A stretch of 64,000 nt of DNA from Limisphaerales bacterium (GTDB lineage Bacteria > Verrucomicrobiota > Verrucomicrobiia > Limisphaerales > SIBE01): positions 1-64,000 of the forward strand of contig JBGAIN010000016.1 in assembly GCA_044225505.1 (NCBI GenBank). The letters are read 5' to 3'. Shown here piece by piece: positions 32,361 to 53,817 of the stretch. A program made the translations under genes and the position numbers. How positions within the stretch are numbered: position 1 is the stretch's first letter; each line of letters opens with the position of its first letter. The notes beneath the pieces are model-generated. The model had not been told where the DNA came from. It did not search any database and saw only the letters and a list, made by a program, of their open reading frames with translations.

Positions 32361-32500
32361 GAGACGGACAGTATCATCACGGAATGCGCGGATTGACAAG
32401 GAGTCGCCCCACTGCCGAGGGCGCCAGGTTGAAGAAATGACCTCACTGTTACACTCGCGCGTTGTAAGGTTGGAATGAGCCGTTGCGACTGATCGGGCAG

Positions 32501-36763: not shown

Positions 36764-38356
36764 TCAGGTCGCGGTCTTGCGGGAATCCCTCGCGCCTTCC
36801 CCGCTTTTAAACAAGATCATCGCCAGGGCCGCACCGCTCCAGCTTAAGAGTGCGGTGAGTGCGCAGATCAATCGGAACGTGTCCACAAACGCGAGTTGAA
36901 TGGCATGTTGGACTTGCCTCAATGACTCGGGCGACAGACCGGAGGGAGGCTGAGTCTCAGCTAAACGTACGGATTCGCGCGTCAGGTGAAGACGATGATC
37001 AGGCGCTAGATTCAGAGGCGCGGTTCGCGCAGGCAATGCACGGTCGAACGCAATCACGGCCGCCGTTCCGAAGACTGCGACGGCCAAGACACCAGCCAGC
37101 CTTGATAATGTGCTATTAATGCCCGAAGCCAGTCCTAGCCGCTCGGATGGCATCGACCCCATCACCGCAGTGCTCAGGGGAGCGGCCGTAAGCCCCAGCC
37201 CGGCCCCAATCAAAAGTAAGCCGGGCAAATACGTCCAGGCGAATTCCTTCGGCCCGGCGGTTAGTCCAGGAACGCTTAACCAAGCAAAACCGGCCCCTGC
37301 GATCGCGGGGCCGAGCGTTAGGGGCAGCTTCGGGCCATAGCGATCGACCATGCTGCCGGCCACACGGGAAAGTGCGATGAGCAAGGCCATCAAAGGAAGC
37401 TGAGTCAGTCCCGCGATGGCAGGATCGTATCCTTGCACTTGAATCAAGTTCAACGGCAGAAAAAAGAGCATTCCGTGGAACGCCATATAGAACGCCAGAC
37501 TTACCAGGCTTGCGGTTTTCAGGGTGTGGGACCGAAATATGTCCAACGGCAACAAGGGCTGGGAAACCCGCTTCTGGACCCAGACGAAAGCGACGAGGCC
37601 CAGCATTCCTACGACGATCGCAGCAATGGCCTGATGTCGCACAGCGTCACCCTTGGCATATTGCAGCAAACCGTAGTTTAGAAATACCAGCCCGATGGTG
37701 ACGGCGAATGCCCCTGTCCAATCAACGGGCTTAGTCCGGTTGGATCGGGAATCGCTAGGGACGTTCCGCCAAAGCATCGTCAGCGCGGCGACGGCTAGCG
37801 GGATGTTGATGAAGAATACCCAGCGCCAAAGTCCCCCGCGTGCCAGGACACCGCCTAAGACCGGGCCGATCGCCGTGGCTAGGACACTGCAAGCCGACCA
37901 CGTCCCAATGGCACGGCCGCGCTCCGAAGGAGCAAAGTAAGTCGATACCATGGCGAGCGCGCCAGGAATCATGAGCGCGCCTCCTATCCCCTGGAGTCCT
38001 CGCCAAACCAGTAGAGCAGAGACACTGGAGGCAAGGCCGCACGCCAATGATGCCGAAGCGAATAGAGTAATGCCCAATGTGAATACCTGCTTGCGTCCAA
38101 AACTGTCCCCCAAGCTGCCACCCAGCAAAAGAAGTGACGCCAAGGGCAGGGAAAAGGCGTTCGTCACCCACAGTAGGTCTGTTCCGGTTGCTCGAAGTCC
38201 GTTTTGGAGCGACGGTAGCGCCACGCTCAAGGCCGTGCCATCGATAAAAACCATGGCCGAACCGAGAATAGACGTCGCTAGGACCCAGCGCGCTACAGCG
38301 ATACGCGACGCGGGCGGCATTGGTGATTGCATCGCGTTGGAGTCGAGGCGCCTCAT
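36764..38356 (-). CDS. MFS efflux transporter, DHA2 (EmrB/QacA) family
   Basis: 14 TM pattern; FIDGTALSVALP, GSLGDSFGRK, RGLQGIGGA, GPVLGG, WRWVFFINIP. Confidence 0.92.
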   Translation of the reverse strand: MRRLDSNAMQSPMPPASRIAVARWVLATSILGSAMVFIDGTALSVALPSLQNGLRATGTDLLWVTNAFSLPLASLLLLGGSLGDSFGRKQVFTLGITLFASASLACGLASSVSALLVWRGLQGIGGALMIPGALAMVSTYFAPSERGRAIGTWSACSVLATAIGPVLGGVLARGGLWRWVFFINIPLAVAALTMLWRNVPSDSRSNRTKPVDWTGAFAVTIGLVFLNYGLLQYAKGDAVRHQAIAAIVVGMLGLVAFVWVQKRVSQPLLPLDIFRSHTLKTASLVSLAFYMAFHGMLFFLPLNLIQVQGYDPAIAGLTQLPLMALLIALSRVAGSMVDRYGPKLPLTLGPAIAGAGFAWLSVPGLTAGPKEFAWTYLPGLLLIGAGLGLTAAPLSTAVMGSMPSERLGLASGINSTLSRLAGVLAVAVFGTAAVIAFDRALPARTAPLNLAPDHRLHLTRESVRLAETQPPSGLSPESLRQVQHAIQLAFVDTFRLICALTALLSWSGAALAMILFKSGEGARDSRKTAT

Positions 38357-38359
38357 CTC

Positions 38360-39961
38360 CTACGCCTCGGCTTGCGCCTGCACCAGTGCGGTGTAATCGA
38401 TTTTGCTCCGGTGCCGCTGGTCAACGGGTAGTTTCCTAACCCTCGTGATGCGATCGATGTGCCAGCGGTTGAGAACTCCCTCAAGAGCATGTAAACCTTC
38501 TGATCCGCGCCGTTCTACGAAAAGGACACGCTGTCCGGCTGCCGCGACAAGCGTCGCCCGACAGCCATGTGCTCGTTCGCGTATCATACCCTCAATAGCA
38601 AGCGGATAAACCGTGCCGTACGCATCATGCACTCGAGCGCAACACCGGCCGAGCAACCAAAGTCGGGACTCTGAATCCAGGTATCCTGCATCACCGGTAC
38701 GATGCCAGATTGTGTCGCCCACGCGAATCTTGGTCTCGGCGTCCTCGCTTGGGTTCAGGTAACCCCGAAGGACGTGATCGCCGCTAACGACAATTTCTCC
38801 CGGATTGCCTTCACGCAGACATCTCTTGTCAAATTCGGCTACAGACATAGGGCCAGCCTTGGCGCTGAAACAGTCTGGAAGGATTCGGAGCCGCGTTCCC
38901 GAATCGATTCGACCCGCCAAGAGGCCAGCGCCGTTAGCGGTGGCATCCAGGTCTCGGGCGCGAATATCTTGCCTTTGCAGAGTCGCAATCGGCTCGGCTT
39001 CAGTGCAACCGTAAAGGGCGGTAATTTTCGCTTGAGGCGCCGCAGCGTGCAATGCATCCAATAGGTGCGGAAAGACCGGGCCCCCGCCCGTATAAATCTT
39101 TCGAATCCGCGACCAGGCCGCGACATCCGAGGCACGATTCAACAGCAAGCCTTCCAGAACGGCTGGCGCGGCCCCAATCCTGTCAACGCGTTGGGCCTCG
39201 ATTTGACGAAGCACAGCATGCGGTTCACGCCAGCGCCCGGAACGCAGATTGCCGCCTGGAAGAACGCTGGTGACTCCGCTGGCCAGATTAGTGAGCGCGA
39301 AGGTGGGAATCGTGGTGAGGTCGATCTCGCCTGGGACAAGTTCGAGGGTTCGTTCGAGAAGTTGCTGCTGATGCCAGAGAAATCCATGAGTCCGCATGGC
39401 GGCTTTCGGCCGTCCCGTGCTCCCGCTGGTGAAGGTGACCAGCGCCGGGGTTTCGGGTGAGCATGGCCAAGGCTGGAATGCCGGCGAATTCCGCCAGCGC
39501 GCGAACGGTATTGTCCAAGGCAATCGCCCTCCTGTGGAGAACTGCATGGGAATGGCTCGCAGCGCTGGAGAAATGAGCCGGAGCAGGTGGGCTTTCGGGC
39601 ACGCGATAAGCCCGCGCGGTGCCCAGAGAGCGCAGCATCGTTCGATGTGTTCACGACCCGTGGTAGGATCGAGGAACATCGCGACCAATCCCAAGCGCAA
39701 CACCGCAGCCAGGGCGATGTAAAGCTCCGTCGACATGGGTTGAAAAACGAGGACCGCATCCCCAGGACGCAACCCTGTGGCATGCAACAGGCCGGCGGCT
39801 TGGGCTGAAGCACGTTCCAGTTCGGCGAACGTAATTGTTCGGTTTCGATGGACGCTCCGTCCCGCGGGGCCAAGCATACTTATTCTGGCCCCAAGATCGA
39901 TGATGGCTGGCTGGGCAGGCCGGACAGTCGCTTGGGTCGAGAGGAGATGCGCTAGATTCAC
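38360..39961 (-). CDS. AMP-dependent ligase (ANL superfamily, OleC-like)
   Basis: FTSGSTGRPK, YGCTEAEPI, GEIVVSG, WHRTGDAG, LWLLGR, LPVDQRHRSKIDY (OleC-like C-terminus). Confidence 0.88.
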   Translation of the reverse strand: MNLAHLLSTQATVRPAQPAIIDLGARISMLGPAGRSVHRNRTITFAELERASAQAAGLLHATGLRPGDAVLVFQPMSTELYIALAAVLRLGLVAMFLDPTTGREHIERCCALWAPRGLIACPKAHLLRLISPALRAIPMQFSTGGRLPWTIPFARWRNSPAFQPWPCSPETPALVTFTSGSTGRPKAAMRTHGFLWHQQQLLERTLELVPGEIDLTTIPTFALTNLASGVTSVLPGGNLRSGRWREPHAVLRQIEAQRVDRIGAAPAVLEGLLLNRASDVAAWSRIRKIYTGGGPVFPHLLDALHAAAPQAKITALYGCTEAEPIATLQRQDIRARDLDATANGAGLLAGRIDSGTRLRILPDCFSAKAGPMSVAEFDKRCLREGNPGEIVVSGDHVLRGYLNPSEDAETKIRVGDTIWHRTGDAGYLDSESRLWLLGRCCARVHDAYGTVYPLAIEGMIRERAHGCRATLVAAAGQRVLFVERRGSEGLHALEGVLNRWHIDRITRVRKLPVDQRHRSKIDYTALVQAQAEA

Positions 39962-40956
39962 AAGGCTTTTGCAAATAGGGCATAGCGCCGGAACACCGAC
40001 CCGTAGCGGGCACTGATGCTTTGGGATTTATTGGAAGAATGCATGAGCGCGTGGATCGCCTGACAGTACCCGAGTTTTCCGGCTTCACGTTGGTTTTCTG
40101 CGGCTAGGAGAGCCCCCAGTCCAGCGTAGGCCCTTTCCGGAGCGATGACGAGAGTCTTGATGATCACCGTATCGATGGGCTCGCCGCGGGCGGCCTGTAA
40201 AAAGTCGGGAATGGTGAAAACAAGTCCAACCGGCCGATCCTCGTGCTCTGCGATCATGATCAATTCCGGCCTCAGCACGGGCCGAATGGCACGATACTGT
40301 TCGATAAAATCGGCGATGTTTACCGGCGAGTAGAGGAGGTTTTGTTGAAAACTGGAAGTGATGAGTGGATAAAGACGCTCGAGCTCCTGATCAAAGCGAG
40401 CAAGATCCAAACAGCGAAATTGAACGCCTAGCTCCCTAAGACGATCCGCGGCCCGTCGACCGCGAGGCTCGTCGTAGTTCAGATTCGTATTCAGCCGGGA
40501 AACGTAGGTTGCTTCCACCGTGAATCCAGCGGCCCACCAGGCTTGCGGCCAATCCAGAGGGTTGTCTGGCTCGAGAAAAAAAGGCGGGCGTGATCCGCTT
40601 TCGACCACGAGCCGATAACGGCGCCAGGTGTTTCCGTCAATTGGGCCAACGGCCCAATTAACGTCCCGCCGCTGGAGTTCTTTGCAAGCATGTTGGAGAA
40701 GTCGAGCGCCATCGCTGGAGTTCTGCGCGGCGTAGTGGCCGATGATGCCAACCCGATGAGAGTCGTACGCGGGAGTCCGTTGCCACCATGCTGAACACCG
40801 AGCACTGGGACTGCCAGCGGCGTTCAACCAAACCCAATGAGCGTCGGGCCCATGCTGCGAGAAATCTGAGCAATGCCTGAACCATCCCGCAGAAATTCCG
40901 GCCAACTGCTGGACTTGGGCTTCGCTCTCAATCAAGACAGGATGATCCATCGTCAC
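39958..40956 (-). CDS. Tandem GNAT-fold N-acyltransferase (YghO-like)
   Basis: GIIGHY, AVGPIDGNTWRRYR, PFFLEPDNP, IIKTL..AGLGALL..AIHALMH; ATGA overlap with the ligase gene. Confidence 0.75.
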   Translation of the reverse strand: MTMDHPVLIESEAQVQQLAGISAGWFRHCSDFSQHGPDAHWVWLNAAGSPSARCSAWWQRTPAYDSHRVGIIGHYAAQNSSDGARLLQHACKELQRRDVNWAVGPIDGNTWRRYRLVVESGSRPPFFLEPDNPLDWPQAWWAAGFTVEATYVSRLNTNLNYDEPRGRRAADRLRELGVQFRCLDLARFDQELERLYPLITSSFQQNLLYSPVNIADFIEQYRAIRPVLRPELIMIAEHEDRPVGLVFTIPDFLQAARGEPIDTVIIKTLVIAPERAYAGLGALLAAENQREAGKLGYCQAIHALMHSSNKSQSISARYGSVFRRYALFAKAL

Positions 40957-40980
40957 GGTGCTCCAAGGAATTTCCGATCG

Positions 40981-42135
40981 TTAGAGGGGCTTGGACACTT
41001 CCTCGATAACCAAGGCACAGTAAAAGAAGGCTTTGTCCCGAGCGTGCAAATCCCGACTCTCCTCGGTCTTTGCGACCAGTTGACTTGTCAAGGCCGCCGG
41101 CCGGCGGCGGTCCACTAACGTATTCCAGTAGACAAGTCGTGCGCCGTCACGTCCGGCGCGGATCAATCGCTCGAGGACCGCTTGATAGTGTGCGGGCGAC
41201 ATGTACTCAAAGATGTCGCTCAAGTTAAACGCATCAAAGGCGCTGGCTTCAGTCGCATCCAGGTATTCCTCGACGGATTGGCAGTGCCATTCCAATCGAT
41301 CAAGATTGTCGCGAATAGTCTCAAAATGCTCTTGGCGCAAGGCCAGCGGTAAGGATGTGTCGTGCTGGCCTTTTAGAATCCAGGTTAGGTACGGATTCTC
41401 GGCCGGGCTCAGCACGGTGAGCGCGTGTTCGGCGCGCTGTAGGATCCGGTCGGCAACGGAGCCTTCGACAAATCTGAAAAAGCTCGGATCGCGGCCACAA
41501 CGGCCCATCACGAACCGGGAGAAGAAGAGTCGGAACATCAACTGCCAACGCCAGGTGTTCCAAGTGCGGTCATAGAAGTCAGCGCGCGCTTTCGAGGATT
41601 GGACGGCGAGCAGTTGTTCCACGCGTGCTTTGGAGTGTACCCATGGGAGCACCTGGGTGCGGAAAGTTTCAAAATAACGTTCGAACTTTCCGGCATTCCC
41701 AAATCCGCGAGCAATTTCGGCAGGTCGATCCGCCCAAAATTGTTGAACGCGTGCGGAAAGGTATTTTCGACAGCGCGCGTAAAGCTCCGGGCGGCGCTGG
41801 CTCGGGCGGGATCCCAGAAGTTCAAGCAGGCCGCCATGGTCAAGTGCGCGATAGGCGGCGACGCGTAGCTCGAGGCATGCGAGTTGGGCCGGGTTGAGAT
41901 CCAGGGCTACGACGCGCCTGGGATGTCGCGTCAGCAAAGCCAGGGTGTTATCGCCGGCCGAGGCGATCGAAAGACACGTCGCCCCCGGTTGCAGACGCAG
42001 CGCGTCCAGGAGAACGTCCGCGTCTTCCCAACATTGAGCATATCGAATGATGGAGAAGTCGGCGTGCTTCGCCGCTTCGCTGTGACGGGCAGCGGGAATC
42101 GGTTCAGATCGGGAATCCAGAGCGGCGAGACTCAT
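40981..42135 (-). CDS. DUF3419 / BtaA-like SAM-dependent 3-amino-3-carboxypropyl transferase
   Basis: IRYAQCWEDAD, LSIASAGDN, DLNPAQLA, GKFERYF, FNLSDIFEYM, RDKAFFY. Confidence 0.85.
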   Translation of the reverse strand: MSLAALDSRSEPIPAARHSEAAKHADFSIIRYAQCWEDADVLLDALRLQPGATCLSIASAGDNTLALLTRHPRRVVALDLNPAQLACLELRVAAYRALDHGGLLELLGSRPSQRRPELYARCRKYLSARVQQFWADRPAEIARGFGNAGKFERYFETFRTQVLPWVHSKARVEQLLAVQSSKARADFYDRTWNTWRWQLMFRLFFSRFVMGRCGRDPSFFRFVEGSVADRILQRAEHALTVLSPAENPYLTWILKGQHDTSLPLALRQEHFETIRDNLDRLEWHCQSVEEYLDATEASAFDAFNLSDIFEYMSPAHYQAVLERLIRAGRDGARLVYWNTLVDRRRPAALTSQLVAKTEESRDLHARDKAFFYCALVIEEVSKPL

Positions 42136-42147
42136 AGTGTGGGACCG

Positions 42148-42783
42148 TCACCGGCGGTGCGAATTCTTAGAGAGGCGTCCTGCCATGAAGCCTACGACCA
42201 GCCCAATGGCCAGCGTCGCGCCTGATCCCCAGTAGAGCGCTCCTTTCGCTGCATTGAGCAGCGGATTGTCGAGGATGTTGTTGGAGACGTGATATGCGCC
42301 CAACTGCCAGCGGCCGTTATCCTTTACGAGAGTCGCAGTCCAACGATTGGTAAAGTCGAAGTCTTTTCCGAACAACGCGTAATGAGCGACGGTATGGCCG
42401 AATGAGATTCCGGTATTTCCATGGAGAATAGTTAGTTCCTCGGGCGTTGGCGGAACGCGATAGCCTTTAAACGCATCTTTTCCCATGCGGTTAAAAAAAG
42501 TCCGCAGGCCGTCATGGCCGCGGCAGACTTCCGCGTTTTGCCAGGTCACGACGACGTTGGTATGCACATTGGCCAGAGTGCGATCGAAGTCGCCGTGCGT
42601 AATGGCATCCACCACGTTCGTCCGCAGTGCGCGGAGTTCCTGGTGCGCGGGATCTTCGGGAACTACTGGTTGTGCGGACGGTGTCAGTTGACAGGCGCTG
42701 ATCGTGAGAAGGAACACGAAGAGCTGAGGCTGACAGAAGCGGGAGCAATATTTGGTGTTAATGACAGGGACAAGGGGAGTCAT
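42148..42783 (-). CDS. NTF2/SnoaL-like (DUF4440) protein with export signal and C-terminal TM anchor
   Basis: ISAC lipobox-like signal; RGHDGLRTFF..RWTATLVKDNGRWQLGAYHVS; C-terminal hydrophobic helix. Confidence 0.75.
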   Translation of the reverse strand: MTPLVPVINTKYCSRFCQPQLFVFLLTISACQLTPSAQPVVPEDPAHQELRALRTNVVDAITHGDFDRTLANVHTNVVVTWQNAEVCRGHDGLRTFFNRMGKDAFKGYRVPPTPEELTILHGNTGISFGHTVAHYALFGKDFDFTNRWTATLVKDNGRWQLGAYHVSNNILDNPLLNAAKGALYWGSGATLAIGLVVGFMAGRLSKNSHRR

Positions 42784-42856
42784 AGGTTTGATTGGGAGGA
42801 TTGTGAGTTCGGGAGAATTATTGAAAAGCGGTGTGTCATCGGCAACGTTTCGTGCT

Positions 42857-44977
42857 CTAAAACTCTGGTGCGCCGAGTTCGACTCGGCCTTCGTCCGCCA
42901 TCAGTGAAATCTTGCTTCGATCGGCAATGCGTGTGGTGGCGTCCGAGACGCCTAGCACCGCGGGGATTCCATACTCGCGACAAATAATAGCGGCATGGGA
43001 AAGCAAGCCGCCGGTTTCGGTGACGACGCCAGCGACTCGGCTAAGAATCGGCGTCCATCCCGGATCTGTGAACGGACAGACTAGGATTGAGCCTGATTCC
43101 ACGGTGGCGGCATCTTCGACCGAACGAGCGACTCGGGCGACGCCGTGGACCGCGCCGCGACTCACGGCAATGCCCCGCAGGCTGCGGCCACCAACAGATG
43201 GCGCAGCGCTCACGGTCGATCCAATTTCGTTGGGCGCTTTGAAGTGTCGGTAGCTCTCGTAGTTGTGCCGGGCTAGGGCAAGGTGCGATCGGTCATTGTC
43301 GAGAATCTCACGAACGGTCATGAAGAAAATGTCGTCGCCCAGGCCGCGTCGCCGAGCGATGGCAAGGACATGCCGACGGAGCAGGTAATACATTTGGCTG
43401 GATAAATCGCGCATTTCCTCGCGCAACCATAAGAAGTGTCGAAGTCGGTCGAGTTTACGCGCGAACCGGCGCCGCTGATGCCAGGGCAGGCGAGCGATCG
43501 CATCCCGTCGTGCTTGCTCATAAACCAAACTTGGATCCGTTCCAGCGAATTTTGAATCTCGCTCGAATAAGCTCCGGACCCATTCCCGGTCCTCATCCCA
43601 GCGCGGTGCCCGAATATCAAGCTCCCGGCGGCTATGGTGCCGGAACCGGTGGAGGAATTGCTCGAATCCCAAATCGCCTCGGAGACGCATCTCAGCTGCA
43701 GATTCGGTCGGTTCGAAATGCCGCAACGGTGGCAGCCCTGCCACCAAACTGGGATAATCGGCTTCCGGAAACGCGTCGGAGAAATCGAGCTTCGCCAAGG
43801 ACGCGCAAAAGATCGTGCGAAAGTAATTGGACTCTGTGATTTGGTAGGCGTGCTCTACCAGACGACGGAACCCGAGCTCAGGGGGATCCGAAACCTCTTC
43901 AGCCCCACCAATCAATTCCGTAAAACCGCCGTTCAGGAAAGCCCGATCGAACTCTGCCTGTTTTTTCCACACGGAAGTCACAGCCCAAGCCGTCGGCAAT
44001 GCGCGGAGAAGGCCGCCGACCGTCACGGGAGTGCAGATACCGTCGCCGGAATACTGCCTGGGAATACTTAAGTCTTCGTCGAACTTTCGTTCATTGTAGC
44101 CGGGAAGTCTCTCTAAGCATCTTTTGACCGCACCGACGTTCCAATAAGGACGGCCGAAAAACATGCGTCCAGCTTGAAAGTCGCCTTCCAAGAGATGAAT
44201 TTCACGGAGAAAACCTTTGAGCGTCTTTTCCCAGATGAAGTCGTAGAGCGACCACATAAGCGGCGTGCAAACGCTGCTTGAAACTCCTCCGTCTCTGAAA
44301 TCGGCGTTGGTCCATAATCCGGTTTCAGGAGCAAAACAGATCCGAGTGATTGGCCGGGCTTGCAGGATGTAAAGTGCACCGTCTTGGATAGCAAACTCAA
44401 TGTCCTGCGGAGCTCCGAAATGGTGTTGGATCTGACGGGCGACAGCCGTGATCTGCGGTGAATACTTCCGGACGAGTTCATGGTTGGGCGATAGGGGCGC
44501 CCGAGTGCCGAGTAACAGTTTATCGGCCAATCCTTCACAAGCTTCGATGACGACTTCCTCCACCCCAGTGGCAGGGTTGATTGTAAATGCCACGCCTGCC
44601 AACTCCGGTTGGATCATTCGTTGAATGATGACTCCCATCTCAAGCGTGCGACTGTCGACGCCGTTTTGGCGGCAATACTCAAGGACTCCCGGGCTTCGGA
44701 GCGAGGACTGACACTGGTGGACAGCGGACCGCAACTCCTCCGCCGATACCAGATTCAAGAAACTCTTGAATTGGCCGGCGAACGAGACGGATTTGCCGTC
44801 CTCGACCGAGGCAGACGAACGCACCACCAGGGGCGTTCCCAACTGCTGGATGGCTTCGTCCAGGTCGCAGGGAAGGCAGACGAATTCTGGCACGGGAAAC
44901 CCAGCTTGGGCTAGCTCCGCCAAGGTCCTGGCTTTGCCACCTACAACCGCGGGCGGAATCACCTCAAACGGCCGCAT
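42857..44977 (-). CDS. PEP-utilising enzyme (PPDK-N ATP-grasp, substrate domain, His swivel); PigC/rifampin-phosphotransferase-like, compact copy
   Basis: VGGKA, VRSSASVEDG..SFAGQF, QDIEFA..ILQARPIT, TDPGWTP, GGLLSHAAIICREYGIPAV. Confidence 0.88.
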   Translation of the reverse strand: MRPFEVIPPAVVGGKARTLAELAQAGFPVPEFVCLPCDLDEAIQQLGTPLVVRSSASVEDGKSVSFAGQFKSFLNLVSAEELRSAVHQCQSSLRSPGVLEYCRQNGVDSRTLEMGVIIQRMIQPELAGVAFTINPATGVEEVVIEACEGLADKLLLGTRAPLSPNHELVRKYSPQITAVARQIQHHFGAPQDIEFAIQDGALYILQARPITRICFAPETGLWTNADFRDGGVSSSVCTPLMWSLYDFIWEKTLKGFLREIHLLEGDFQAGRMFFGRPYWNVGAVKRCLERLPGYNERKFDEDLSIPRQYSGDGICTPVTVGGLLRALPTAWAVTSVWKKQAEFDRAFLNGGFTELIGGAEEVSDPPELGFRRLVEHAYQITESNYFRTIFCASLAKLDFSDAFPEADYPSLVAGLPPLRHFEPTESAAEMRLRGDLGFEQFLHRFRHHSRRELDIRAPRWDEDREWVRSLFERDSKFAGTDPSLVYEQARRDAIARLPWHQRRRFARKLDRLRHFLWLREEMRDLSSQMYYLLRRHVLAIARRRGLGDDIFFMTVREILDNDRSHLALARHNYESYRHFKAPNEIGSTVSAAPSVGGRSLRGIAVSRGAVHGVARVARSVEDAATVESGSILVCPFTDPGWTPILSRVAGVVTETGGLLSHAAIICREYGIPAVLGVSDATTRIADRSKISLMADEGRVELGAPEF

Positions 44978-47471
44978 AACGCTCCTTTCGCAACTCGGGG
45001 GCCAGGATGCAATCTTGGTTCACGGCGGCTAATCCGAACCCATGTTTCTGGGCCATGAGTGCGACCCGTCGCAGGCCTTGTCCTGTGATTGCGCCTGTAA
45101 AGCTCATGTCTCGAACGTTTTCAAAACCAAGGAGGGCAGCCTCGGCCATGCACCCGTACGTTTGGCCTGGCGGCAATGGAAACCCGACGATCCCCAGGTC
45201 TTCGCCGCCCGGCAAGGAGGCGATGCCTCCGCGGAGCACGCGCAAATCCTGGCAGGGCTGATCGAGGCCCGAGGCCATAGCATTTGGGACGGACAAGTCG
45301 CAGACCACTGCTCCAGGTTTGAACTGTCCCGGGTGCAAAGTGACGTCGGCGGCATTGATGGCGATCAGCACCGTGTCTCCTAGTTGAACATCACCCAGTT
45401 GGTCGGTCACCTTGGATCGGGGTATGCCCCTCGCCAACTCCGATAGACGTCGCTGCGATCCAGGGCGATTGCTTCCAATCAGCACGGTTTCCCGATAGTT
45501 AGGCGCCAGAATCTCAGCGGCGGCGCGGCCGATATTGCCAGCGGCCCCCACAATGACAAGGGTGGCATCCTGCGGGAGCCGGTCTTGCGAGCGTTCGGCC
45601 CGAGCAATCGCCTGCAGCGCCAGCCAGAGCGCGTAGGTATTTCCGGTTGTCACTCCCATGCCATTGCCGTTCACGCGGACGCCGTTTTGCGTGGCGATGG
45701 ACGTGTACTGTCCGAGTGCGACGAGTTGGCATTTGAGCTCTCGCGCCAGGTCGACGCCGCGCTGCACCAGATGCGCGGCCGCGTGCCGACGTCCTGCGTC
45801 CAACTCTCGTTTGACCCACGCGGAGGTGAAAGGGAGCAAGATTGGGCAGAGCCAGACCTTTTCGCCAGTTCGAGATCGGATCTCGACGCCATTCATCGCG
45901 ATGGGCCACGCGCGGCCCAGCCCGCGTTCCAGGAAGGTTTCCCGGGCCTGTTGATTCCAGGCAGCGAATGCTGGATCCAGATGACGCAGGTCGTCAGCTT
46001 CAATCAAGTGGCAAATCCATCCGACGCGATTCCCGGCCGTGGAGCGAGTCTTTTCGAACTGAGCGGGTTCAAAGGCGAAGAAGTGTCCATCGCTCCGGAC
46101 GCAATGGGTGGCACTGGCCGCGGGTGTCTCGCCGAGGAATCGAGTCAGACTGGCGCCGTCTTGGGCGCGCAAGCACTGACAGACATTCTCCAACGCCGTT
46201 AACGTTCGTGCCTCCTCAATTTCCGTGAGCAACAAGGAGGGCTCGAAACGGAGTGTGAAACGATCGCTCAGCGTTGGCGCGACGCGGATCTGGTGCTGAT
46301 GCAGGAGGTATCCGGTAATGACAAACAGCAAGTCTTGCTGAGTCGAGAGGAAGCGCAGAACCATTCCGGCGGATGTTGCGATCGGTCGGAATTCAAGCCC
46401 GAGCATCAATCCGATCCCGCGGACATCTGCAATCACGTCGGGGAAACGCTCGGCCAATCCTCGCAAGGCCTGGCGAAATCCGTTCCCGCGATCAAGACAT
46501 TGCTTTAAAGCAGCCTCATCCAGGAGTTCCAAGACTTTAAGGGCGATCCCGCAGGAATAATCGTCGTCGGCGTAAGTGCTGGTATGTTTCAGATCGAACT
46601 CGTCGCGATACTGGCGACGCTCAACAAGCAAGGCCGAAATCTTCGCCAACCCTCCTCCGAGGGCCTTCGAGAGCACAATATAGTCTGGACGAACGCCGTG
46701 GTGTTCACAGGCGAGAAACCTTCCGGTGCGTCCGAGACCTGTCTGACACTCGTCCGCGATCAAGGGAATTCGTCGTTCGCCGCAGAGGCGTGCGGCCGTT
46801 TGAACAAAGTTGGAGTCGAGCAGTCGCACGCCACCTTCGCCCAGGACAGGTTCGAAGACGAATCCCGCCAAGTCCCGTTCGTTGGCAAATGCGGATTTAA
46901 GAGCTTCCATGTCGTTGGGCGTCACCCGCACGACTCGAGCTCGAGGCAAATCGAATGGCTCCCGATACTCGGGATTAGCCGTTAGTTGGAGCGCGCCGAG
47001 AGTCTTCCCGTGAAAACCTCTTTCCAAGGCGATGAACGTCGCATGCCCTGTCTGTAGCATGGCGTGTTTTAAAGCGGCTTCGACCGCTTCCGCTCCGGAA
47101 TTGGCAAAGACCGCATAATAATCCCCGCCCGCCCGGCGTGATAGTTCACTGGCCAATCGCTGGGCGAGAGGACGCACTGATCCTTGGACGTGGTGAGGCC
47201 GTTGTTCCGCGAGGAACCGAATGGCTTCGGCGGTGAGGATCGGATGGGCGTGTCCGAAGAGAAGAGACCCGTAGCCTCCCACGAGGTCGAGCACCTCGAC
47301 GAGGTCGGCCTTTTCGTTTCGATAGAACAGGCTGGTCCCCGCGCCTCGTTCATACGCGACATCCAATCGTAACGATTGCAGGAGTTGGTTGAGGCGGGGC
47401 TTGAAATGGCCGCTATGAGTGCCTGGAGGGCGCCCCGTGCGACTCAACTTGGAAACGTCATTAGTGGGCAT
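44964..47471 (-). CDS. Class III aminotransferase fused to an acyl-ACP/CoA-reductase-like domain (TamH-like)
   Basis: NSGAEAVEAALK, FHGKTLG, EPVLGEGG, DECQTGLGRTG, LSKALGGG; C-domain ALGQYTSI, TTGNT, VGAAGNIG, YGCMAEAALL; probable start MPTND at 47471. Confidence 0.85.
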   Translation of the reverse strand: MPTNDVSKLSRTGRPPGTHSGHFKPRLNQLLQSLRLDVAYERGAGTSLFYRNEKADLVEVLDLVGGYGSLLFGHAHPILTAEAIRFLAEQRPHHVQGSVRPLAQRLASELSRRAGGDYYAVFANSGAEAVEAALKHAMLQTGHATFIALERGFHGKTLGALQLTANPEYREPFDLPRARVVRVTPNDMEALKSAFANERDLAGFVFEPVLGEGGVRLLDSNFVQTAARLCGERRIPLIADECQTGLGRTGRFLACEHHGVRPDYIVLSKALGGGLAKISALLVERRQYRDEFDLKHTSTYADDDYSCGIALKVLELLDEAALKQCLDRGNGFRQALRGLAERFPDVIADVRGIGLMLGLEFRPIATSAGMVLRFLSTQQDLLFVITGYLLHQHQIRVAPTLSDRFTLRFEPSLLLTEIEEARTLTALENVCQCLRAQDGASLTRFLGETPAASATHCVRSDGHFFAFEPAQFEKTRSTAGNRVGWICHLIEADDLRHLDPAFAAWNQQARETFLERGLGRAWPIAMNGVEIRSRTGEKVWLCPILLPFTSAWVKRELDAGRRHAAAHLVQRGVDLARELKCQLVALGQYTSIATQNGVRVNGNGMGVTTGNTYALWLALQAIARAERSQDRLPQDATLVIVGAAGNIGRAAAEILAPNYRETVLIGSNRPGSQRRLSELARGIPRSKVTDQLGDVQLGDTVLIAINAADVTLHPGQFKPGAVVCDLSVPNAMASGLDQPCQDLRVLRGGIASLPGGEDLGIVGFPLPPGQTYGCMAEAALLGFENVRDMSFTGAITGQGLRRVALMAQKHGFGLAAVNQDCILAPELRKERYAAV

Positions 47472-50118
47472 AGCAGTCGGCGGCGAGGCCAGCTCGATCT
47501 CGCGGCAAATCTGAGATTGCGGGTGATTTGGCGGGAGGGCTGACCCGGCGCACATGACCAGTCCCGCCGTCGACCTCGAGCCATTCTCCGTCTTGAACCC
47601 AATCCAAAAGGCCATCGATCGACACCACGGTGGGGATTCGCAACTCACGCGCTACAATGGCCGAGTGTGAGAGCAAACTTCCTCGCTCCACGAGCACCGC
47701 GGACGCGGCTGGGAAAAGCAGAATCCAGCCCGGATCGGTAGACCGTGCGATCAGAATCTCGCCCGCGGAAAGCCGCGCTTCGTGGGGGTCGCGCACCACG
47801 CGCGCGATCCCGCGCACCACGCCCGGGCAACAACCAATGCCTTGCCGGGAATCTCCGGAGGTTCCTGCTACCGGGGAACTCACGTTCAGCGAAGGCCGTC
47901 CTTGATACGGAGTGCCTCGCGTGGTGAGGCGGTTGGGGAGCACCGGTTCGCGGCGGAACTGTTCGTATTGCGAGCGTCGTAGGCGTGCCAGGGCGTCTAG
48001 ATCTGTCAGGGACGCCGTGCCATCGTAGAACCCAAGGATCTCGTCCAATTCCAAATAGAAGATGTCTCGGGGATCCTCCAGGTATCCTTCGGCGGTGAAC
48101 CGTCGTCCTAACTCGAGCATCACTTGGCGCACTCGTCCGAAAAGGCGTGTTCGTTCAAACCGCAAATTCTCTCGGTCCCGGACCCGAGCGCGGGCCTGTC
48201 GAAGCACCACATAGAATAGGGCGCGGCGGAGCGGGTGATGCCGTAGCTGTTGGGCGACCCGTGCTTCGGCTTTGGCCGCCGGACCTTGATCCAATGCGCC
48301 TCTCTCCGAGGGCGGAGGGTCAGGCAGCGCAGCCATCCGCGCCACCGATCGCAGGAGCGGTAAAGGATCCTCCTGCAAGGTGGGACTCTCCAGTTTCAAT
48401 TCGTCGAGACAGCGATCTCCAAAGTCGTTCAGATAAGCCTGAAAGGCCGCTGCAAAGTCCGGCGCGTGTTCGATTGCTTCCCGAATGCGGCCGAGCGGCT
48501 CTTCGCGCAGTTGGCGCAATAGCTCTGGGTGAGCTTGCGCCAGGCGAGCCAGGGCGCGGATTCTTCGGACAGGTTCGGCGCTAATGGTCGCCCCATGGCG
48601 GCAAAGCAATGATGGAACCAACCCGGCGTCGTCCGACGGGCACCACTTCTGCGCAAGGCTTCGCAGCACGCCGCAGAAAATCATGGTGAAAAAATCGTTC
48701 AGGAGAGGCGCATCCCAGCGGGTCAGGAGTTTCCTTTCCAAGTCTTGGAAGTAACCGATCAACTCGTCGCTTCTTTGGGCTTCGAGCGGGATGTGCGGCG
48801 GTTGCAGCGCTTCGCTCAAACGGGTGTGAAAGCGCTGGACCGTCGTGGGAAGGCGAACACAATGCCGGACGATCTTGGAACCCATCAACGCCAGGCGACC
48901 GAGATCACGAAGACGATCCTGCCACGTTGCGTGCTCGAGTTGACCGAGCACTTCAGCGGGTAAGGGCTCTTTCACTCCCATCATTTGTTCCATGAACCGC
49001 CGGTTGACAGTGAACCCCGGAAGCAAAGCGAGCACTCGGTACCAGTTGAGCAGATTGTAGTAAACGCGTCCGCGGATCAGGCCTAGCATCCGTGGGAATG
49101 TCGTTTGATGCGCTTGTATCTTGGCCGGCGAGACGGCTAGGAGTTGACAGAACTGCCTGTAGACACCCTCGTAGGCGCGTCGCGCAAAGGTGAACGTCAA
49201 GGGAGTGGTGACGCCGCTATAGCTCTCCGTGATATTGCTGTTGTCCCAGATTCCCAAATCGCTATCCGGGTCGACTCGGTCTTTTAGGGTCGTGATGGGC
49301 CGCGCCTGCAAAAGGTAGATCGTTCCCTGTTCGATGGCCCACTCGATGTCCTGGGCGCAGCCAAAATGCCTTTCCACGTTTCGAGCCAATTGTGCGAGGG
49401 CACACACCTGGGATTTCTCCAGCACCGGTTGGACACCCGCTGCAGAACCGGCGCTCTCTTCCGGCAGCCCAAGCTCCGCAGATGCATTGTGGCTTATGAT
49501 TTTTCCTTCCCGATCGATTTTCCAGGTCTCTCCGCTGCTTTCGCCCGAAGCTAATGCGGCCCCGAGACCCCGGACGGCAGAGATGACGCTGACACTGCGT
49601 CGGCCGGTGACAGGGTCAGCGCTAAAAGCAATCCCAGCAACGTCGGCTCGCACCATTCGCTGCACTACGATGGCAGGCAACTTCAGCATGGGCGCATCCG
49701 AGAATCGTTGCCGGTAGGCGGAGATGCGCGCGCTGTAGGAGGAGCGCCAAACGGCGGCCATTCTGTCGAGCACCATGTCAGCGGGGACACTCAGGAAACT
49801 GTCCAACTGACCCGCAAATGAATAGTCGCGACCATCTTCGTCAGAGGCTGAAGACCGGACGGCGACGGTCTCCTGGTTTGGGCAAAGCTGCTCGAGAGCG
49901 GCTTGGATCGCTCTCCGCAATTCGTCGCTTGGGCCCGAGTCGAGAAATTCCGTCCCATCCGAGTTGGCCGAAGTGCGGATGAGCCAGCAGGCGTCCGGCA
50001 AAACCACGAACCACGGCGGGATGGACCAGCCTGCCTGGCCTAGTGAGAGAAGGGATGCGGCTTTCCGACCTATCTCCGATTGAGCACGCGAGGTTTCGGG
50101 CCAAACAATGAGGTTCAT
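47461..50118 (-). CDS. PEP-utilising enzyme, PigC/rifampin-phosphotransferase-like, long copy
   Basis: AVRSSASDEDG..SFAGQL, QDIEWA..LLQARPIT, WDNSNITESYSGVTTPLT, TDPGW, GSLLSHSAIVARE; start MNLIVW at 50118. Confidence 0.9.
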   Translation of the reverse strand: MNLIVWPETSRAQSEIGRKAASLLSLGQAGWSIPPWFVVLPDACWLIRTSANSDGTEFLDSGPSDELRRAIQAALEQLCPNQETVAVRSSASDEDGRDYSFAGQLDSFLSVPADMVLDRMAAVWRSSYSARISAYRQRFSDAPMLKLPAIVVQRMVRADVAGIAFSADPVTGRRSVSVISAVRGLGAALASGESSGETWKIDREGKIISHNASAELGLPEESAGSAAGVQPVLEKSQVCALAQLARNVERHFGCAQDIEWAIEQGTIYLLQARPITTLKDRVDPDSDLGIWDNSNITESYSGVTTPLTFTFARRAYEGVYRQFCQLLAVSPAKIQAHQTTFPRMLGLIRGRVYYNLLNWYRVLALLPGFTVNRRFMEQMMGVKEPLPAEVLGQLEHATWQDRLRDLGRLALMGSKIVRHCVRLPTTVQRFHTRLSEALQPPHIPLEAQRSDELIGYFQDLERKLLTRWDAPLLNDFFTMIFCGVLRSLAQKWCPSDDAGLVPSLLCRHGATISAEPVRRIRALARLAQAHPELLRQLREEPLGRIREAIEHAPDFAAAFQAYLNDFGDRCLDELKLESPTLQEDPLPLLRSVARMAALPDPPPSERGALDQGPAAKAEARVAQQLRHHPLRRALFYVVLRQARARVRDRENLRFERTRLFGRVRQVMLELGRRFTAEGYLEDPRDIFYLELDEILGFYDGTASLTDLDALARLRRSQYEQFRREPVLPNRLTTRGTPYQGRPSLNVSSPVAGTSGDSRQGIGCCPGVVRGIARVVRDPHEARLSAGEILIARSTDPGWILLFPAASAVLVERGSLLSHSAIVARELRIPTVVSIDGLLDWVQDGEWLEVDGGTGHVRRVSPPAKSPAISDLPRDRAGLAADCYAH

Positions 50119-51065
50119 GGGGAACTTTGAATAAGACGTCGGAGGAGTGGCCCGACTCCCAGACTGAGATACATGATCAAAGTGCCAAGGCCTGAACAAC
50201 GGTCAATCCACTGCGCGACTGACGGGGTAGGATGTCGCCTGAAGCGGAGTGCGAGCCCGCCCGCCAGCAGCAATACCCCGCCGAAGAGCAATGCCAACCA
50301 AAGGCCGCACCCGACCCGCCCTGCGGCCATAACCGCACAGACGGCAGTGAAAAGCAGCGCGCTCCACCAGGCGGTGGCGGCCCGCGCCGAGCCCCAAAGC
50401 GCACTGTAAGTGCGGACGCCTGGTTCCTCACTTTGCGGTGCGCGAATCTTTCTCCCAAGTTCCAAGGCAATCCCATTACAGAAGCTAGTGGCCAGAAACC
50501 AAAACAGACCCGAGGGAGGTTGGGTGCTCCAGCGCGTCCAGTCGCAGGCTGTGGCGAAGAAGTCGGCCAGTGGGATAACCAGCATGTGCGTCCAAAGATA
50601 GGTCAACGGCCGGCGGAGGATCCATTCGCGGACAAAAAACTCTTTGGTCATGAGCGCGAGGTAGCTCCAAACCAGAACTAACAAAAGCGCCAGGCGCCAC
50701 GATAGAGTTGCCGCGGCTGCCAGCTGCACGAGCGCTCCAAGGCCGGCGATGGTGGCCAATTCCCGCAACGTCACTAAACCCCGGGGCACCGGACGGTAGG
50801 GGCGCCAGCGAGCATCCTCATCACGATCTTTGAACTCATCAGCGACTCGCAGTTGAAAAAAGCAAATAAAACAGCCGACGAATGCAATCAGGAGCGACGC
50901 AGGCAAGGGCCAACTTCCGTCTGCACGCAGCGCGCAGGCGTAGCTGACCGCGGATCCGCTAAATGCCGCAATGAGCAGTCCATGGCCGGCAAGCGGGAAC
51001 CGTTCCGCCTGGTAAGCCCAAAGGCGTGTCGCGAGGTTTCCGTCGGATTCACGGGGCACGCTCAT
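50115..51065 (-). CDS. UbiA family prenyltransferase-like membrane protein
   Basis: ERFP, LRVADEFKDRDED..RPYRPVPRG (Asp-rich motif), EFFV, ELGRK..EEPGVRTYS; about 8 TM; start 51065 or 51116. Confidence 0.82.
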   Translation of the reverse strand: MSVPRESDGNLATRLWAYQAERFPLAGHGLLIAAFSGSAVSYACALRADGSWPLPASLLIAFVGCFICFFQLRVADEFKDRDEDARWRPYRPVPRGLVTLRELATIAGLGALVQLAAAATLSWRLALLLVLVWSYLALMTKEFFVREWILRRPLTYLWTHMLVIPLADFFATACDWTRWSTQPPSGLFWFLATSFCNGIALELGRKIRAPQSEEPGVRTYSALWGSARAATAWWSALLFTAVCAVMAAGRVGCGLWLALLFGGVLLLAGGLALRFRRHPTPSVAQWIDRCSGLGTLIMYLSLGVGPLLRRLIQSSP

Positions 51066-51316
51066 CGTTCCGCCAGGTAGCAGCGGCACATGGGCAAGTG
51101 GAGGTCTCACGGGCATCTCTTCGAGTTACAACATGCAAACAGGAACGGAGCATTCGGACATCAGGAGCATAGGCGAATGGGGAACGGCCTGTGAAATAAA
51201 AAATTGAAGCGTCGCCATTGACCCAATCGATGCTCGGCGACCGTGACTCTGCACGCTACGGACGCGGGAGACATTTTTCCGAGAGAGGAAACGCTGCCCC
51301 TGGGATTCGTGACGTC

Positions 51317-52717
51317 TTAAGCGCGTCTTGTCAGGCAGATGGGAAGGCCGCTGCGCGTTCGTAAGGTTATCCCGGGCCAAGGGGTTACCTCCGTGCCGGG
51401 GGGCAGTTCCAGCCGGAATTCCCGCACGACCCGAGCCGTAACGAGCTGCGCTTCTAACATGGCAAACTCGCTGCCGATACAATAGCGCGGTCCGGTGCCG
51501 AACGGTAGATAGGCCGACGGCGGTTCCGAGGCAAACCGTTCCGGAACAAACTCGTCGGGCTTTTCCCAAAAGCGTGGGTCACGATGCAACGTAAACGGGC
51601 AGACCACCACAGGCGATCCGGCGGGAATGGCAAACCCGGCTAGCGCATCCCTTGCGATGGCGCGTCGTTCAATGATCCAGATGGGCGGAAACAGGCGCAT
51701 CGCTTCCCGAAGCACTTGCTGCACTTCAGCGAGCGACGCGAGGTCAGCTAACGCCGGTTCCCGGTCGCCAAGAACCTGCCGAACCGTCTTGTGCAGTCGG
51801 TCTTGAATCTCCGGGTGCCTGGCCAGGAGATAGAAGGTCCATGTGAGAGCATTGCTCGTGGTCTCGTGTCCGGCCAGGAGAAACGTGATGGTTTGGTCAC
51901 GAATGGCTTGGTCGGCGATAGGACCGCCGCCGGATTCATCCTGAGCCGTCAGGAGCATCCCGAGCAAATCAGTCCCGCCGTCGGTCTGCGGCGGTCGCGC
52001 TCGGCGTTGTTCGATAAGGCGGTAGACAACCGCGTCCAGATCCCGGAGGGCGCCCTGGAAACGTCGATTCTGACGAGTCGGAACCCAGTCCGGCCAATTG
52101 AACAGGCTTTGCAGGCGACCAAACGTATGTGGGAGGATGACTTGCATGGCCGCCTCGATCGTGCGGGCGTCGCCGTCCGAGCCCGCATCAAAAAACGCCT
52201 GCGCGGCAATCGCGTAAGTCAATTGCATCATTTCGGCTGCGAAGTCGAGTGGCTGGCCGAGGTCCGCCGCCTTGCCCCAGACGCGTGCGAAACCCCGAGT
52301 GGTATCCACCATCAGGGTAGCAAATCGTTGAACGCTGTTGTGGTGAAAGAACGGTTGCAGGCGCCGTCGCTGGCACTGCCAGCTCGCGCCATTGCTGGTC
52401 AAAAGACTCTCGCCGCAAACCGCTCGAATGTAGCGAGCGCTACGGGTGGCTTTGTCATAATTCGCGGCGCGTCGTCGCAAGACCTCCTCGACCAGATCGG
52501 GATGATTCACCATATGGACCACCTGCGGCCCGAGGCGAAAGCGAATCACATCTCCGTACTTGCGGGAGGAATCCAGCAGCAGTTGCAGAACGTCGCGTCG
52601 AAACTCGCGCAAATGCCCGAGGGCCCAGTGAGCGGGGGGGCCTGGAGCCCGGTGCGATGGAGTGGGTGCCCGCACGGTTAAGAAGGGTATTTCCAGGTAT
52701 CGAATGATCGTGCCCAC
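51317..52717 (-). CDS. Cytochrome P450
   Basis: AGHETT, EAMR (ExxR), FVPERF, FGTGPRYCIG heme ligand; real start may be the GTG at 52675. Confidence 0.95.
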   Translation of the reverse strand: MGTIIRYLEIPFLTVRAPTPSHRAPGPPAHWALGHLREFRRDVLQLLLDSSRKYGDVIRFRLGPQVVHMVNHPDLVEEVLRRRAANYDKATRSARYIRAVCGESLLTSNGASWQCQRRRLQPFFHHNSVQRFATLMVDTTRGFARVWGKAADLGQPLDFAAEMMQLTYAIAAQAFFDAGSDGDARTIEAAMQVILPHTFGRLQSLFNWPDWVPTRQNRRFQGALRDLDAVVYRLIEQRRARPPQTDGGTDLLGMLLTAQDESGGGPIADQAIRDQTITFLLAGHETTSNALTWTFYLLARHPEIQDRLHKTVRQVLGDREPALADLASLAEVQQVLREAMRLFPPIWIIERRAIARDALAGFAIPAGSPVVVCPFTLHRDPRFWEKPDEFVPERFASEPPSAYLPFGTGPRYCIGSEFAMLEAQLVTARVVREFRLELPPGTEVTPWPGITLRTRSGLPICLTRRA

Positions 52718-53817
52718 TCTCGAGCAATCCGCTGACGCAATGCGGAGGGCAGGGGAGTGAACTCATTCTTTTGATATCCAGCAAGCGACTCGACGTAGCG
52801 TCGCAGTTTGGGCTCAAAAGTGTCAAAGCCAGACAGGTTCAACTGTTCATAGATGGCCCGAACCTGCCCGATCGGGTCTCGCTCCAATGCCTCGAACGGG
52901 ATGTCGCAGAACCGATCGTTGGGCACTAAACCGCGGTCGCGGAAAAAGGCGTCGTGGAGCAGGTTGTAGCGCTGGAAAATGCCGTCGTCCTGGCGCTCCA
53001 GATCCGGTCGTTGCAGATAGGTATACCACATCGCGGTGTCAAAGTAGTGCTGGGTGGACCGGAAGACCCGGTAAGGATCGCGATGGACATGGACAAACCG
53101 GGCCTTGGGAAACAGTTCCAGCAGAATCCGGATTCTCGCGGTGTGGGTGGGCGATTTAAGCAGCAGAGTCCGGTTCGATTTCAGCGTCAGTTTCTTTAGG
53201 AAATAGACAAACGCTTGTTGCCATTGCTCTCGCTCGTCCGCGGATGCCCGATCAAAGGTTAAATACTTTAAGTAATGCTCTTCGCGCCGCGGAAAGCTGA
53301 TTCCCAGATAGGGGGAGAGCAAGCTCGTCAGGCAGGGACCAAATTCGTCTTCCTGGGGAGTATCGAAACTGAGCGCCATATTATCCATCGGCCTATGCGG
53401 TGGCACCAGCCGGGCAAAGCGCCGTTTGTTAACCTCCTCCGTGCAGAGGAAAGTTAGAGGGTTCACCACCTGATAGGTATTGGCAAACGTGAACTGGTCC
53501 GTGTCCTGCGCCAGCAGGTAGTGCAGCAAGGTCGTGCCGCTGCGCCAGTGCCCGAGAATGAACAACGGCGCTTCGGCGAGTTGAACCTTGGCAATGGCCG
53601 GTCCGAACTGGCGTTCTTCTTGCGCCCTGTACCACGCGTTCAGGCCGCTCGTGAGTGTGATAAAGGCGGCTCGGTGCAGATAGGCCGGATCGATCCCGTA
53701 GTGATTGTCAGACAGCAGCTTTCTCCATGCGCCAGGGGTAATCCCGGCGAGATAGTTGTGCATGACGCTCCACCGGTGTTTTAGAACGGGCCGAGAGGAT
53801 CGGGACAGCGGCGGCAT
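52678..53817 (-). CDS. PAPS-dependent sulfotransferase (Sulfotransfer_3, Stf3-like)
   Basis: PLFILGHWRSGTTLLHYLL, RPMDNM..PQEDEF, LKSPTHTARI, FVHVHRDP, YQKN. Confidence 0.9.
   Translation of the reverse strand: MPPLSRSSRPVLKHRWSVMHNYLAGITPGAWRKLLSDNHYGIDPAYLHRAAFITLTSGLNAWYRAQEERQFGPAIAKVQLAEAPLFILGHWRSGTTLLHYLLAQDTDQFTFANTYQVVNPLTFLCTEEVNKRRFARLVPPHRPMDNMALSFDTPQEDEFGPCLTSLLSPYLGISFPRREEHYLKYLTFDRASADEREQWQQAFVYFLKKLTLKSNRTLLLKSPTHTARIRILLELFPKARFVHVHRDPYRVFRSTQHYFDTAMWYTYLQRPDLERQDDGIFQRYNLLHDAFFRDRGLVPNDRFCDIPFEALERDPIGQVRAIYEQLNLSGFDTFEPKLRRYVESLAGYQKNEFTPLPSALRQRIAREWARSFDTWKYPS

Follow-up and report, generated by a model that had tools for sequence, protein, structure and literature searches.

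The stretch of DNA analysed here, referred to as the window, comprises 64,000 nucleotides from a Limisphaerales bacterium (assembly GCA_044225505.1, contig JBGAIN010000016.1) and contains a cluster of eleven consecutive minus-strand genes running from 53817 down to 36764. The cluster is the nitrogen (amine) version of a widespread fatty-alcohol lipid operon. Five of its genes, encoding a UbiA-like membrane protein, a phosphotransferase (kinase 1), a DUF3419 protein, a GNAT acyltransferase and a ligase, form a core operon that spans about a dozen phyla. To this core the commoner version adds an HMG-CoA-reductase-like gene and a gene for a 450-aa membrane protein, and the rarer version, to which the window belongs, adds an aminotransferase-reductase fusion, a second phosphotransferase (kinase 2) and an NTF2 protein. 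Our proposal, held with moderate confidence, is that the cluster produces an amino lipid built on a fatty amine, with hydroxylation, sulfation and export to the cell envelope as predicted further steps. Its enzymes belong to known families; the cluster itself is real, conserved and uncharacterised.

The exchange of modules was apparent from a scan of a genome collection for DUF3419 proteins. The scan gave 503 loci with relatives of the window's protein, the closest of them mostly from Verrucomicrobiota, and the best 80 loci were examined over at most 10 kb on each side, many of the genomes being incomplete. At stricter thresholds, kinase 1 had an orthologue in 62 of the 80 loci, the UbiA-like protein and the GNAT in 60 each, and the ligase in 55. 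The reductase-like gene of the commoner version occurred in 43 loci and its 450-aa membrane protein in 55; for the rarer version the counts were 11 (fusion), 13 (kinase 2) and 16 (NTF2). Fifty-seven loci had the reductase-like and/or the 450-aa kinase-like gene, 13 had the fusion and/or kinase 2, and none combined the two; the other 10, several of them on short contigs, had neither module. A profile of the kinase-like protein found no match in five amine-type genomes, nor in three more including the window's own, while both positive controls were detected. PF00368 was likewise without a match in the five amine-type genomes, and the middle domain of kinase 2 was absent from five alcohol-type genomes. 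Neither FcrA (see below) nor the phytol-kinase-like gene matched anything in the window's own genome, which is 95% complete.

The nature of the commoner version follows from its reductase-like gene. It retains the catalytic residues, has Glu instead of Ser684 and Phe instead of Leu862 (40 of 40 sequences for each) and has no Lys at the 735 position. These are the marks described for FcrA, an enzyme that makes fatty alcohols (PMC11948995). A mevalonate or isoprenoid reading of the gene in the related loci was rejected on the pocket residues. Since FcrA makes fatty alcohols, its counterpart in the amine version should make a fatty-chain product, and the likely products of the commoner version itself are a fatty alcohol and the corresponding phosphate.

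The FcrA-led operon has the order FcrA-UbiA-kinase-DUF3419-phytol-kinase-like-GNAT-ligase, the phytol-kinase-like gene encoding the 450-aa membrane protein. The window has all five core genes of this operon, with identities of 40-65%, a similar order and a DUF3419 protein from the same subfamily, but carries the amine fusion, kinase 2 and the NTF2 protein in place of FcrA and the membrane kinase, kinase 2 standing in for the phytol-kinase-like gene. It also adds a sulfotransferase, a cytochrome P450 and an exporter of the major facilitator superfamily (MFS). The original prediction, a note made from the letters of the window, had called the cluster an orphan. That description does not hold, as the five-gene core is common (the 503 loci above) and the cluster is a variant of a seven-gene FcrA operon with a module exchanged. 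The same prediction knew of no characterised pathway with this combination of genes, and here we agree: no account of the gene set was found in the literature searched, supplements and MIBiG being outside the search. FcrA has been characterised (PMC11948995), whereas the operon it leads has not; that operon is likewise without a description in the literature searched, with most subscription papers and supplements outside it. Some alcohol-type loci seemed to hold DUF3419-kinase fusions, but alignment did not bear these out, and they were treated as artefacts of open reading frame (ORF) extension.

The gene set recurs in other genomes at 40-67% identity, which is more than chance would give. In four other Verrucomicrobiota genomes (L003, L007, L009, L035) all eleven lie side by side, with the MFS gene, unlike in the window, between the P450 and UbiA genes. 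Three distinct metagenome contigs (L115, L121, L126) hold ten of the genes in the same order as the window, and the same ten, with one half inverted, occur on two further distinct contigs (L117, L122). The four contiguous genomes and the three contigs support the original view of the eleven genes as one unit, and show it to be conserved. In three Opitutae genomes (L008, L012, L013) the set is split over two loci, and in two of these the sulfotransferase and P450 genes adjoin the ligase gene. In Horticoccus (G001) the set is divided in two; the UbiA locus lacks a reductase of its own and holds a second DUF3419 gene (42%). The Horticoccus split fits one shared pathway.

All eleven ORFs of the original prediction were recovered with their coordinates and order. 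They are listed from the highest coordinate down, all on the minus strand (-):
52678..53817 (-), sulfotransferase, 379 aa (PF13469, E 2.6e-36)
51317..52717 (-), cytochrome P450 (PF00067, E 4.6e-91; probable start GTG at 52675)
50115..51065 (-), UbiA-fold membrane transferase, core gene (PF01040, 49.6 bits; ORF runs from 51116)
47461..50118 (-), kinase 1, 885 aa, core gene; ATP/phospho-His phosphotransferase of RPH architecture
44964..47471 (-), TamH-type fusion, 835 aa, amine module; class III aminotransferase and acyl-ACP-reductase-like thioester reductase
42857..44977 (-), kinase 2, 706 aa, amine module; second PPDK-family phosphotransferase
42148..42783 (-), NTF2/SnoaL-fold protein (DUF4440, E 7.6e-7), found only with the amine module
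40981..42135 (-), DUF3419 (BtaA-like) protein, core gene (PF11899, E 7.7e-73, 246 bits)
39958..40956 (-), tandem GNAT acyltransferase, core gene
38360..39961 (-), adenylate-forming (OleC-like group) ligase, 533 aa, core gene (PF00501)
36764..38356 (-), DHA2-family MFS exporter (TIGR00711, DHA2/EmrB, 234 bits against a cut-off of 230)

The five junctions named originally are right: those at 50115-50118, 47461-47471, 44964-44977 and 39958-39961 overlap by 4, 11, 14 and 4 nt, and that at 38356/38360 leaves a gap of 3 nt. The other five comprise one overlap of 40 nt (a P450 start at 52675 would turn it into a 2-nt gap) and four gaps, of 251, 73, 12 and 30 nt. The largest breaks are those between P450 and UbiA (251 nt to the likely UbiA start) and between kinase 2 and NTF2 (73 nt); neither a small conserved ORF nor a motif of an acyl carrier protein (ACP) was seen in the former. 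Pfam confirmed Sulfotransfer_3, P450, UbiA (weakly), PPDK_N with PEP-utilizers (twice), Aminotran_3, DUF4440/SnoaL, DUF3419, AMP-binding and MFS_1, and found no carrier or ketosynthase (KS) gene among the eleven. The reported lack of an ACP was borne out by PF00550, which has four matches in the genome and none on the cluster contig (C36). Catalytic motifs said to be intact indeed are so in the kinases, the fusion, the P450, the sulfotransferase and the ligase; the UbiA-like protein departs from this, its second Asp motif being replaced in 29 of 29 sequences. Nearly the whole region is covered by tiling contigs of three further sequencing runs (from two studies); no indels are listed for them, and no single contig spans it completely. 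The GC content is 56-61% in the cluster and 57% in the genome, and a scan for promoters and terminators was at chance level (5 against 5.8 and 24 against 21.3).

Prenyltransferases of the UbiA family carry two Asp-rich motifs. The model of the window's protein, with a predicted local distance difference test (pLDDT) score of 91, matched ApUbiA with Z 20.1 and a root-mean-square deviation of 3.6 over 264 residues, DGGGP synthase with Z 19.2 and Rv3806c with Z 16.6. The first Asp motif is kept (D76/D80/D84), and the second is replaced by the invariant E202/R205/K206/R208 (E-x-G-R-K-x-R), which makes the earlier suggestion of a prenylated product doubtful. Rv3806c, a decaprenyl-phosphate phosphoribosyltransferase, has the UbiA fold and holds its lipid-phosphate acceptor by a lysine of the sixth transmembrane helix (PMC10994848). 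The window's protein may resemble it, with R205/K206 at the end of the sixth long helix, but is only 12% identical, and both ApUbiA and DGGGP synthase score higher. As a lead, the basic residues may recall the lipid-phosphate binding of Rv3806c.

The DUF3419 protein is a predicted S-adenosylmethionine (SAM) 3-amino-3-carboxypropyl transferase. In a quick tree built without a verified BtaA, the proteins of both operon versions form one subfamily (SH-aLRT 95) far from the other DUF3419 protein of the genome, whose branch is very long. This suggests a similar acceptor in both versions, because the proteins of both fall in one subfamily. Within the tree, amine- and alcohol-type rows are mixed (four changes, with a single origin still compatible), so that it is silent on which event came first. 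BtaA is known to transfer aminocarboxypropyl from SAM, as is the microcin C enzyme MccD, which places it onto phosphate and to which BtaA does not appear homologous (PMC10491745). A kinship of DUF3419 to MccD was considered and dropped, as no PDB match was found by sequence or profile, and MccD serves as a chemical analogy only. The cluster resembles BtaA/BtaB betaine lipid synthesis in its DUF3419 family and presumed aminocarboxypropyl transfer from SAM (PMC10491745), but there is no BtaB-type methyltransferase among the eleven genes. Moreover, the other DUF3419 protein of the genome (L096:5319-6542, G000:C311) has the better Pfam score (386 against 246 bits) and is only 26% identical to that of the cluster; it is possibly the true BtaA, and a scan of one neighbour revealed no BtaB. 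A distant version of the cluster (L163:2-10895) has, in this order, kinase 2, fusion, UbiA, DUF3419, kinase 1, GNAT and phosphatidylserine decarboxylase genes, and because it ends in the last of these, it points to an amino-acid-headed lipid. Separately, two cyanobacterial genomes (L027, L041) carry a cluster-type DUF3419 gene standing alone.

The GNAT of the window has no Pfam match of its own, while an orthologue matches Acetyltransf_1. Its model (pLDDT 92) has a tandem GNAT fold; PDB sequences gave weak GNAT matches only, and the fold search named no close relative. It may resemble the bacterial ceramide synthase bCerS, which has Spt and CerR as partners. PMC11087976 describes bCerS itself. 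For the ligase, the best NCBIfam matches were PRK09274 (332 bits) and OleC (188 bits), both below cut-off. Compared with OleC beta-lactone synthetase it reached 188 of 900 and 155 of 850, and no oleA, oleB or oleD is found among the eleven genes. In most rearranged loci the GNAT and ligase genes travel together, as would fit a supply of acyl-coenzyme A (CoA) for N-acylation. A more distant trio of ligase, UbiA and kinase, lacking GNAT, is found as well.

By its domains, the fusion is a TamH-type enzyme, predicted to convert an acyl thioester to a primary amine. The N-terminal half is a class III aminotransferase (PF00202), and the C-terminal domain matches PigE (E 8.9e-16) and the cyanobacterial acyl-ACP reductase AAR (E 1.3e-9) with the catalytic Cys aligned. 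The pyridoxal phosphate (PLP)-binding Lys269, the GxxGxxG motif and Cys774 are invariant in nine of nine sequences. TamH has the same two domains and Cys, and converts a C12 aldehyde to the amine (PMC9594044). The window shares the domain order, PLP Lys, GxxGxxG and Cys with the TamA/TamH/TamQ tail branch of tambjamine YP1 in Pseudoalteromonas tunicata (PMC9594044) and with PigE/PigC, and also has an adenylating ligase and a PPDK-family enzyme nearby. Unlike TamA, its ligase is AMP-binding only and has no ACP, nor does the rest of the cluster. The bipyrrole genes of tambjamine and prodiginine clusters are missing, and DUF3419, UbiA-like, GNAT, P450 and sulfotransferase genes are added. Related fusions occur in other settings as well. 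Loci L168-L189 (e.g., L174:1112-5554, L171 and L183) encode more distant ligase-aminotransferase-reductase triple fusions of about 1480 aa followed by DUF3419 and GNAT genes; an MMPL gene often lies upstream, a sulfotransferase is sometimes present, and the whole represents a compact cousin pathway. In L140-L144, a fusion at 38-39% identity stands in another conserved setting, accompanied by an acyl-CoA dehydrogenase, an amino-acid permease, a fatty-acid desaturase and a divergent 1100-aa adenylating enzyme.

PigC and TamQ are PPDK-family enzymes that drive condensations. Both kinases of the window score below the cut-offs for PigC (252 and 195 against 1300, for kinase 1 and kinase 2, respectively) and RedH (300 and 191 against 1350). 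The curated RPH cut-off is also not reached (259 and 240 against 999), with the RPH domain order and His kept. The phospho-His is H818 in kinase 1 (47 of 47 sequences) and H661 in kinase 2 (24 of 24), near-duplicates included in both counts. Immediately after the fusion comes kinase 2 in 21 of the 24 distinct loci with 1 kb or more downstream (25 of 28 with four duplicates counted), and in P0098 it is naturally fused to DUF3419 in a protein of 1083 aa. Because of this adjacency and the P0098 fusion, kinase 2 is most simply taken to act on the product of the fusion and to pass its own product to the shared core. The PPDK-family enzymes TalE (phosphoramidon) and Cj1418 phosphorylate an amine or amide nitrogen via phospho-His (PMC6482885). 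Their described activity is a precedent for a possible role of kinase 2; their substrates are a dipeptide and glutamine, compared with the fatty amine proposed for kinase 2.

The NTF2 proteins have hydrophobic segments at both termini across the 28 sequences listed, duplicates included. The predicted signal peptide and C-terminal membrane anchor mean that the domain probably faces outward and is unlikely to be a cytoplasmic tailoring enzyme. One locus (L006:2119-3251) has a tandem duplication of the gene.

For the tailoring genes, the I-helix, ExxR and heme-Cys motifs of the P450 are present, as are the sulfotransferase and ligase motifs. In related clusters holding both, the sulfotransferase gene lies directly upstream of the P450 gene, and 13 of the 120 sulfotransferase homologues listed carry the automatic JGI label omega-hydroxy-beta-dihydromenaquinone-9 sulfotransferase (Stf3-type). 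This lasting adjacency and the Stf3-type labels suggest that a chain may be hydroxylated by the P450 and then sulfated. Cyp128 and Stf3 are such a sulfolipid tailoring pair in mycobacterial sulfomenaquinone synthesis. Orthologues of the MFS exporter (55-64%) also lie inside related clusters, at another position.

From these genes a pathway can be proposed, each chemical step of which is a prediction. A fatty acyl thioester (acyl-ACP of the housekeeping kind or acyl-CoA supplied by the ligase) would be reduced by the TamH-type fusion to an aldehyde, which the same enzyme would transaminate to a fatty amine. Kinase 2 would then activate the amine via phospho-His, by N-phosphorylation as in TalE or by condensation as in PigC and TamQ. 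In steps whose relative order is left free, DUF3419 would use SAM to attach a 3-amino-3-carboxypropyl (homoserine) moiety, kinase 1 together with the UbiA-fold protein would link the lipid phosphate to a second unit, the ligase and GNAT would add an N-acyl chain, and the P450 and sulfotransferase would hydroxylate and sulfate a chain. Finally, the MFS protein would export the product and the anchored NTF2 domain would bind it outside the cytoplasm. The lipophilic amine-containing product foreseen originally remains the best reading; of its two alternatives, amino-lipid or alkaloid, the genes support a membrane lipid better than an alkaloid. In a more specific and still speculative form, which we consider rather unlikely, kinase 2 would take the exact place of the alcohol kinase and N-phosphorylate the fatty amine, and the resulting membrane lipid would contain a phosphoramidate (N-P) link, a homoserine head group and one chain bearing sulfate. 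The consulted sections of PMC6429109 hold nothing on bacterial N-P lipids. If true, such a lipid would be new chemistry, and the operon would be the nitrogen twin of an undiscovered class of alkyl-phosphate lipids made across many phyla.

Several observations weigh against an amine version of an envelope-lipid operon. TamH did not accept C12-CoA (PMC9594044), and the cluster has no ACP. An alcohol-type genome, G452 (L195, G452:C93), carries a separate and distant aminotransferase-reductase fusion (30% identity). Fusion relatives with room for kinase 2 but without it are found in L130, L132 and L133, and L120, L124 and L125 hold the fusion and kinase 2 but none of the remaining cluster genes. 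The label of the swapped 450-aa gene is weak: we presume it to be phytol-kinase-like from its motif pattern, and an Atlas match at 0.91 supports this, but nothing in Pfam or NCBIfam matches it. The distribution is patchy, as the DUF3419 orthologue was absent from all 40 relatives searched, including two of the same genus, and no close NTF2 match was found in 300 other genomes of the phylum. The cluster is accessory, since it was not found in the 40 relatives, and its patchy spread and drug-type exporter would also suit a secondary metabolite.

The same early chemistry might lead to a small secreted bioactive alkylamine resembling nocuolin or tambjamine instead of an envelope lipid, an outcome that we judge unlikely. 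The DHA2 exporter, the P450, the sulfotransferase and the patchy distribution agree with it, as does the pairing of TamH with a PPDK-family condensing enzyme, known from tambjamine if TamQ has the role we presume. The nocuolin A (noc) cluster shares fatty-chain activation, an aminotransferase gene (PMC5333925), a DUF3419 gene beside clyA (PMC7923214, Table 1) and a methionine-derived C3-N unit, C2-C4 and N coming from methionine (PMC9486936). Unlike the window, noc uses FAAL-ACP (FAAL, fatty acyl-AMP ligase) and the ketosynthase NocG, and the accounts of it, whose supplementary gene tables lie outside the comparison, mention no UbiA-like or PPDK-like genes. Against a secreted alkylamine stand the low scores of kinase 2 with PigC and RedH, the lack of pyrrole, KS and carrier genes, the alcohol version, which mostly has no exporter, and the phosphatidylserine decarboxylase gene in L163. 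By the features tested, the cluster works partly like the tambjamine tail branch and partly like betaine-lipid and nocuolin chemistry, and is a member of none.

It is improbable that the window holds two adjacent pathways, in which MFS, fusion, kinase 2, NTF2 and DUF3419 would make an N-(aminocarboxypropyl) alkylamine and UbiA, kinase 1, GNAT, ligase, P450 and sulfotransferase another product. The three Opitutae genomes divide the set in just this way, the UbiA locus of G001 has its own DUF3419, and the fusion and kinase 2 stand alone in three loci, but neither half is missing from the same genomes, the window and seven other loci have the two sets interleaved, and the UbiA half requires a reductase, which is otherwise absent from these genomes. 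A true UbiA prenyltransferase making a prenylated, omega-hydroxylated and sulfated product like mycobacterial sulfomenaquinone, to which the fold and the Stf3-type labels beside a P450 would lend themselves, is highly improbable given the basic residues at the second Asp-rich motif, the absence of a prenyl-diphosphate synthase or ring-forming gene from the conserved neighbours, and the FcrA-type rather than mevalonate-type reductase of the alcohol version.

For the fatty-amine lipid that we favour, the exchange of O for N is a testable handle on a lipid operon of about a dozen phyla whose product is undescribed in the literature searched. Through it, a membrane alcohol kinase and a soluble phospho-His kinase emerge as likely functional equivalents, and a TamH-type enzyme is met outside the pyrrole pigments. 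Lipidomics is feasible now because both versions have cultured carriers: Horticoccus (sp. 23ND18S-11) for the amine version, and Brevibacillus laterosporus, Alkalilimnicola ehrlichii and Microcoleus for the alcohol version.

The genes flanking the cluster, for a beta-helix protein and LMF1, were found in none of the 80 related loci and were left out of it. The 683-aa beta-helix protein (34550-36601, minus strand) directly follows the MFS gene on the same strand. Upstream of the sulfotransferase, a short repeat (54095-54138) has 29 BLAST matches across the genome. A Ku gene (59125-59965, minus strand) appears as two overlapping ORFs in different frames, the first covering 146 of 190 profile positions, and a run of 23 N at 32896-32918 breaks the ORF 32483-33270. 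On the plus strand, 3850-7697 encodes a 948-aa immunoglobulin-domain protein followed by a spherulin-4-family gene.

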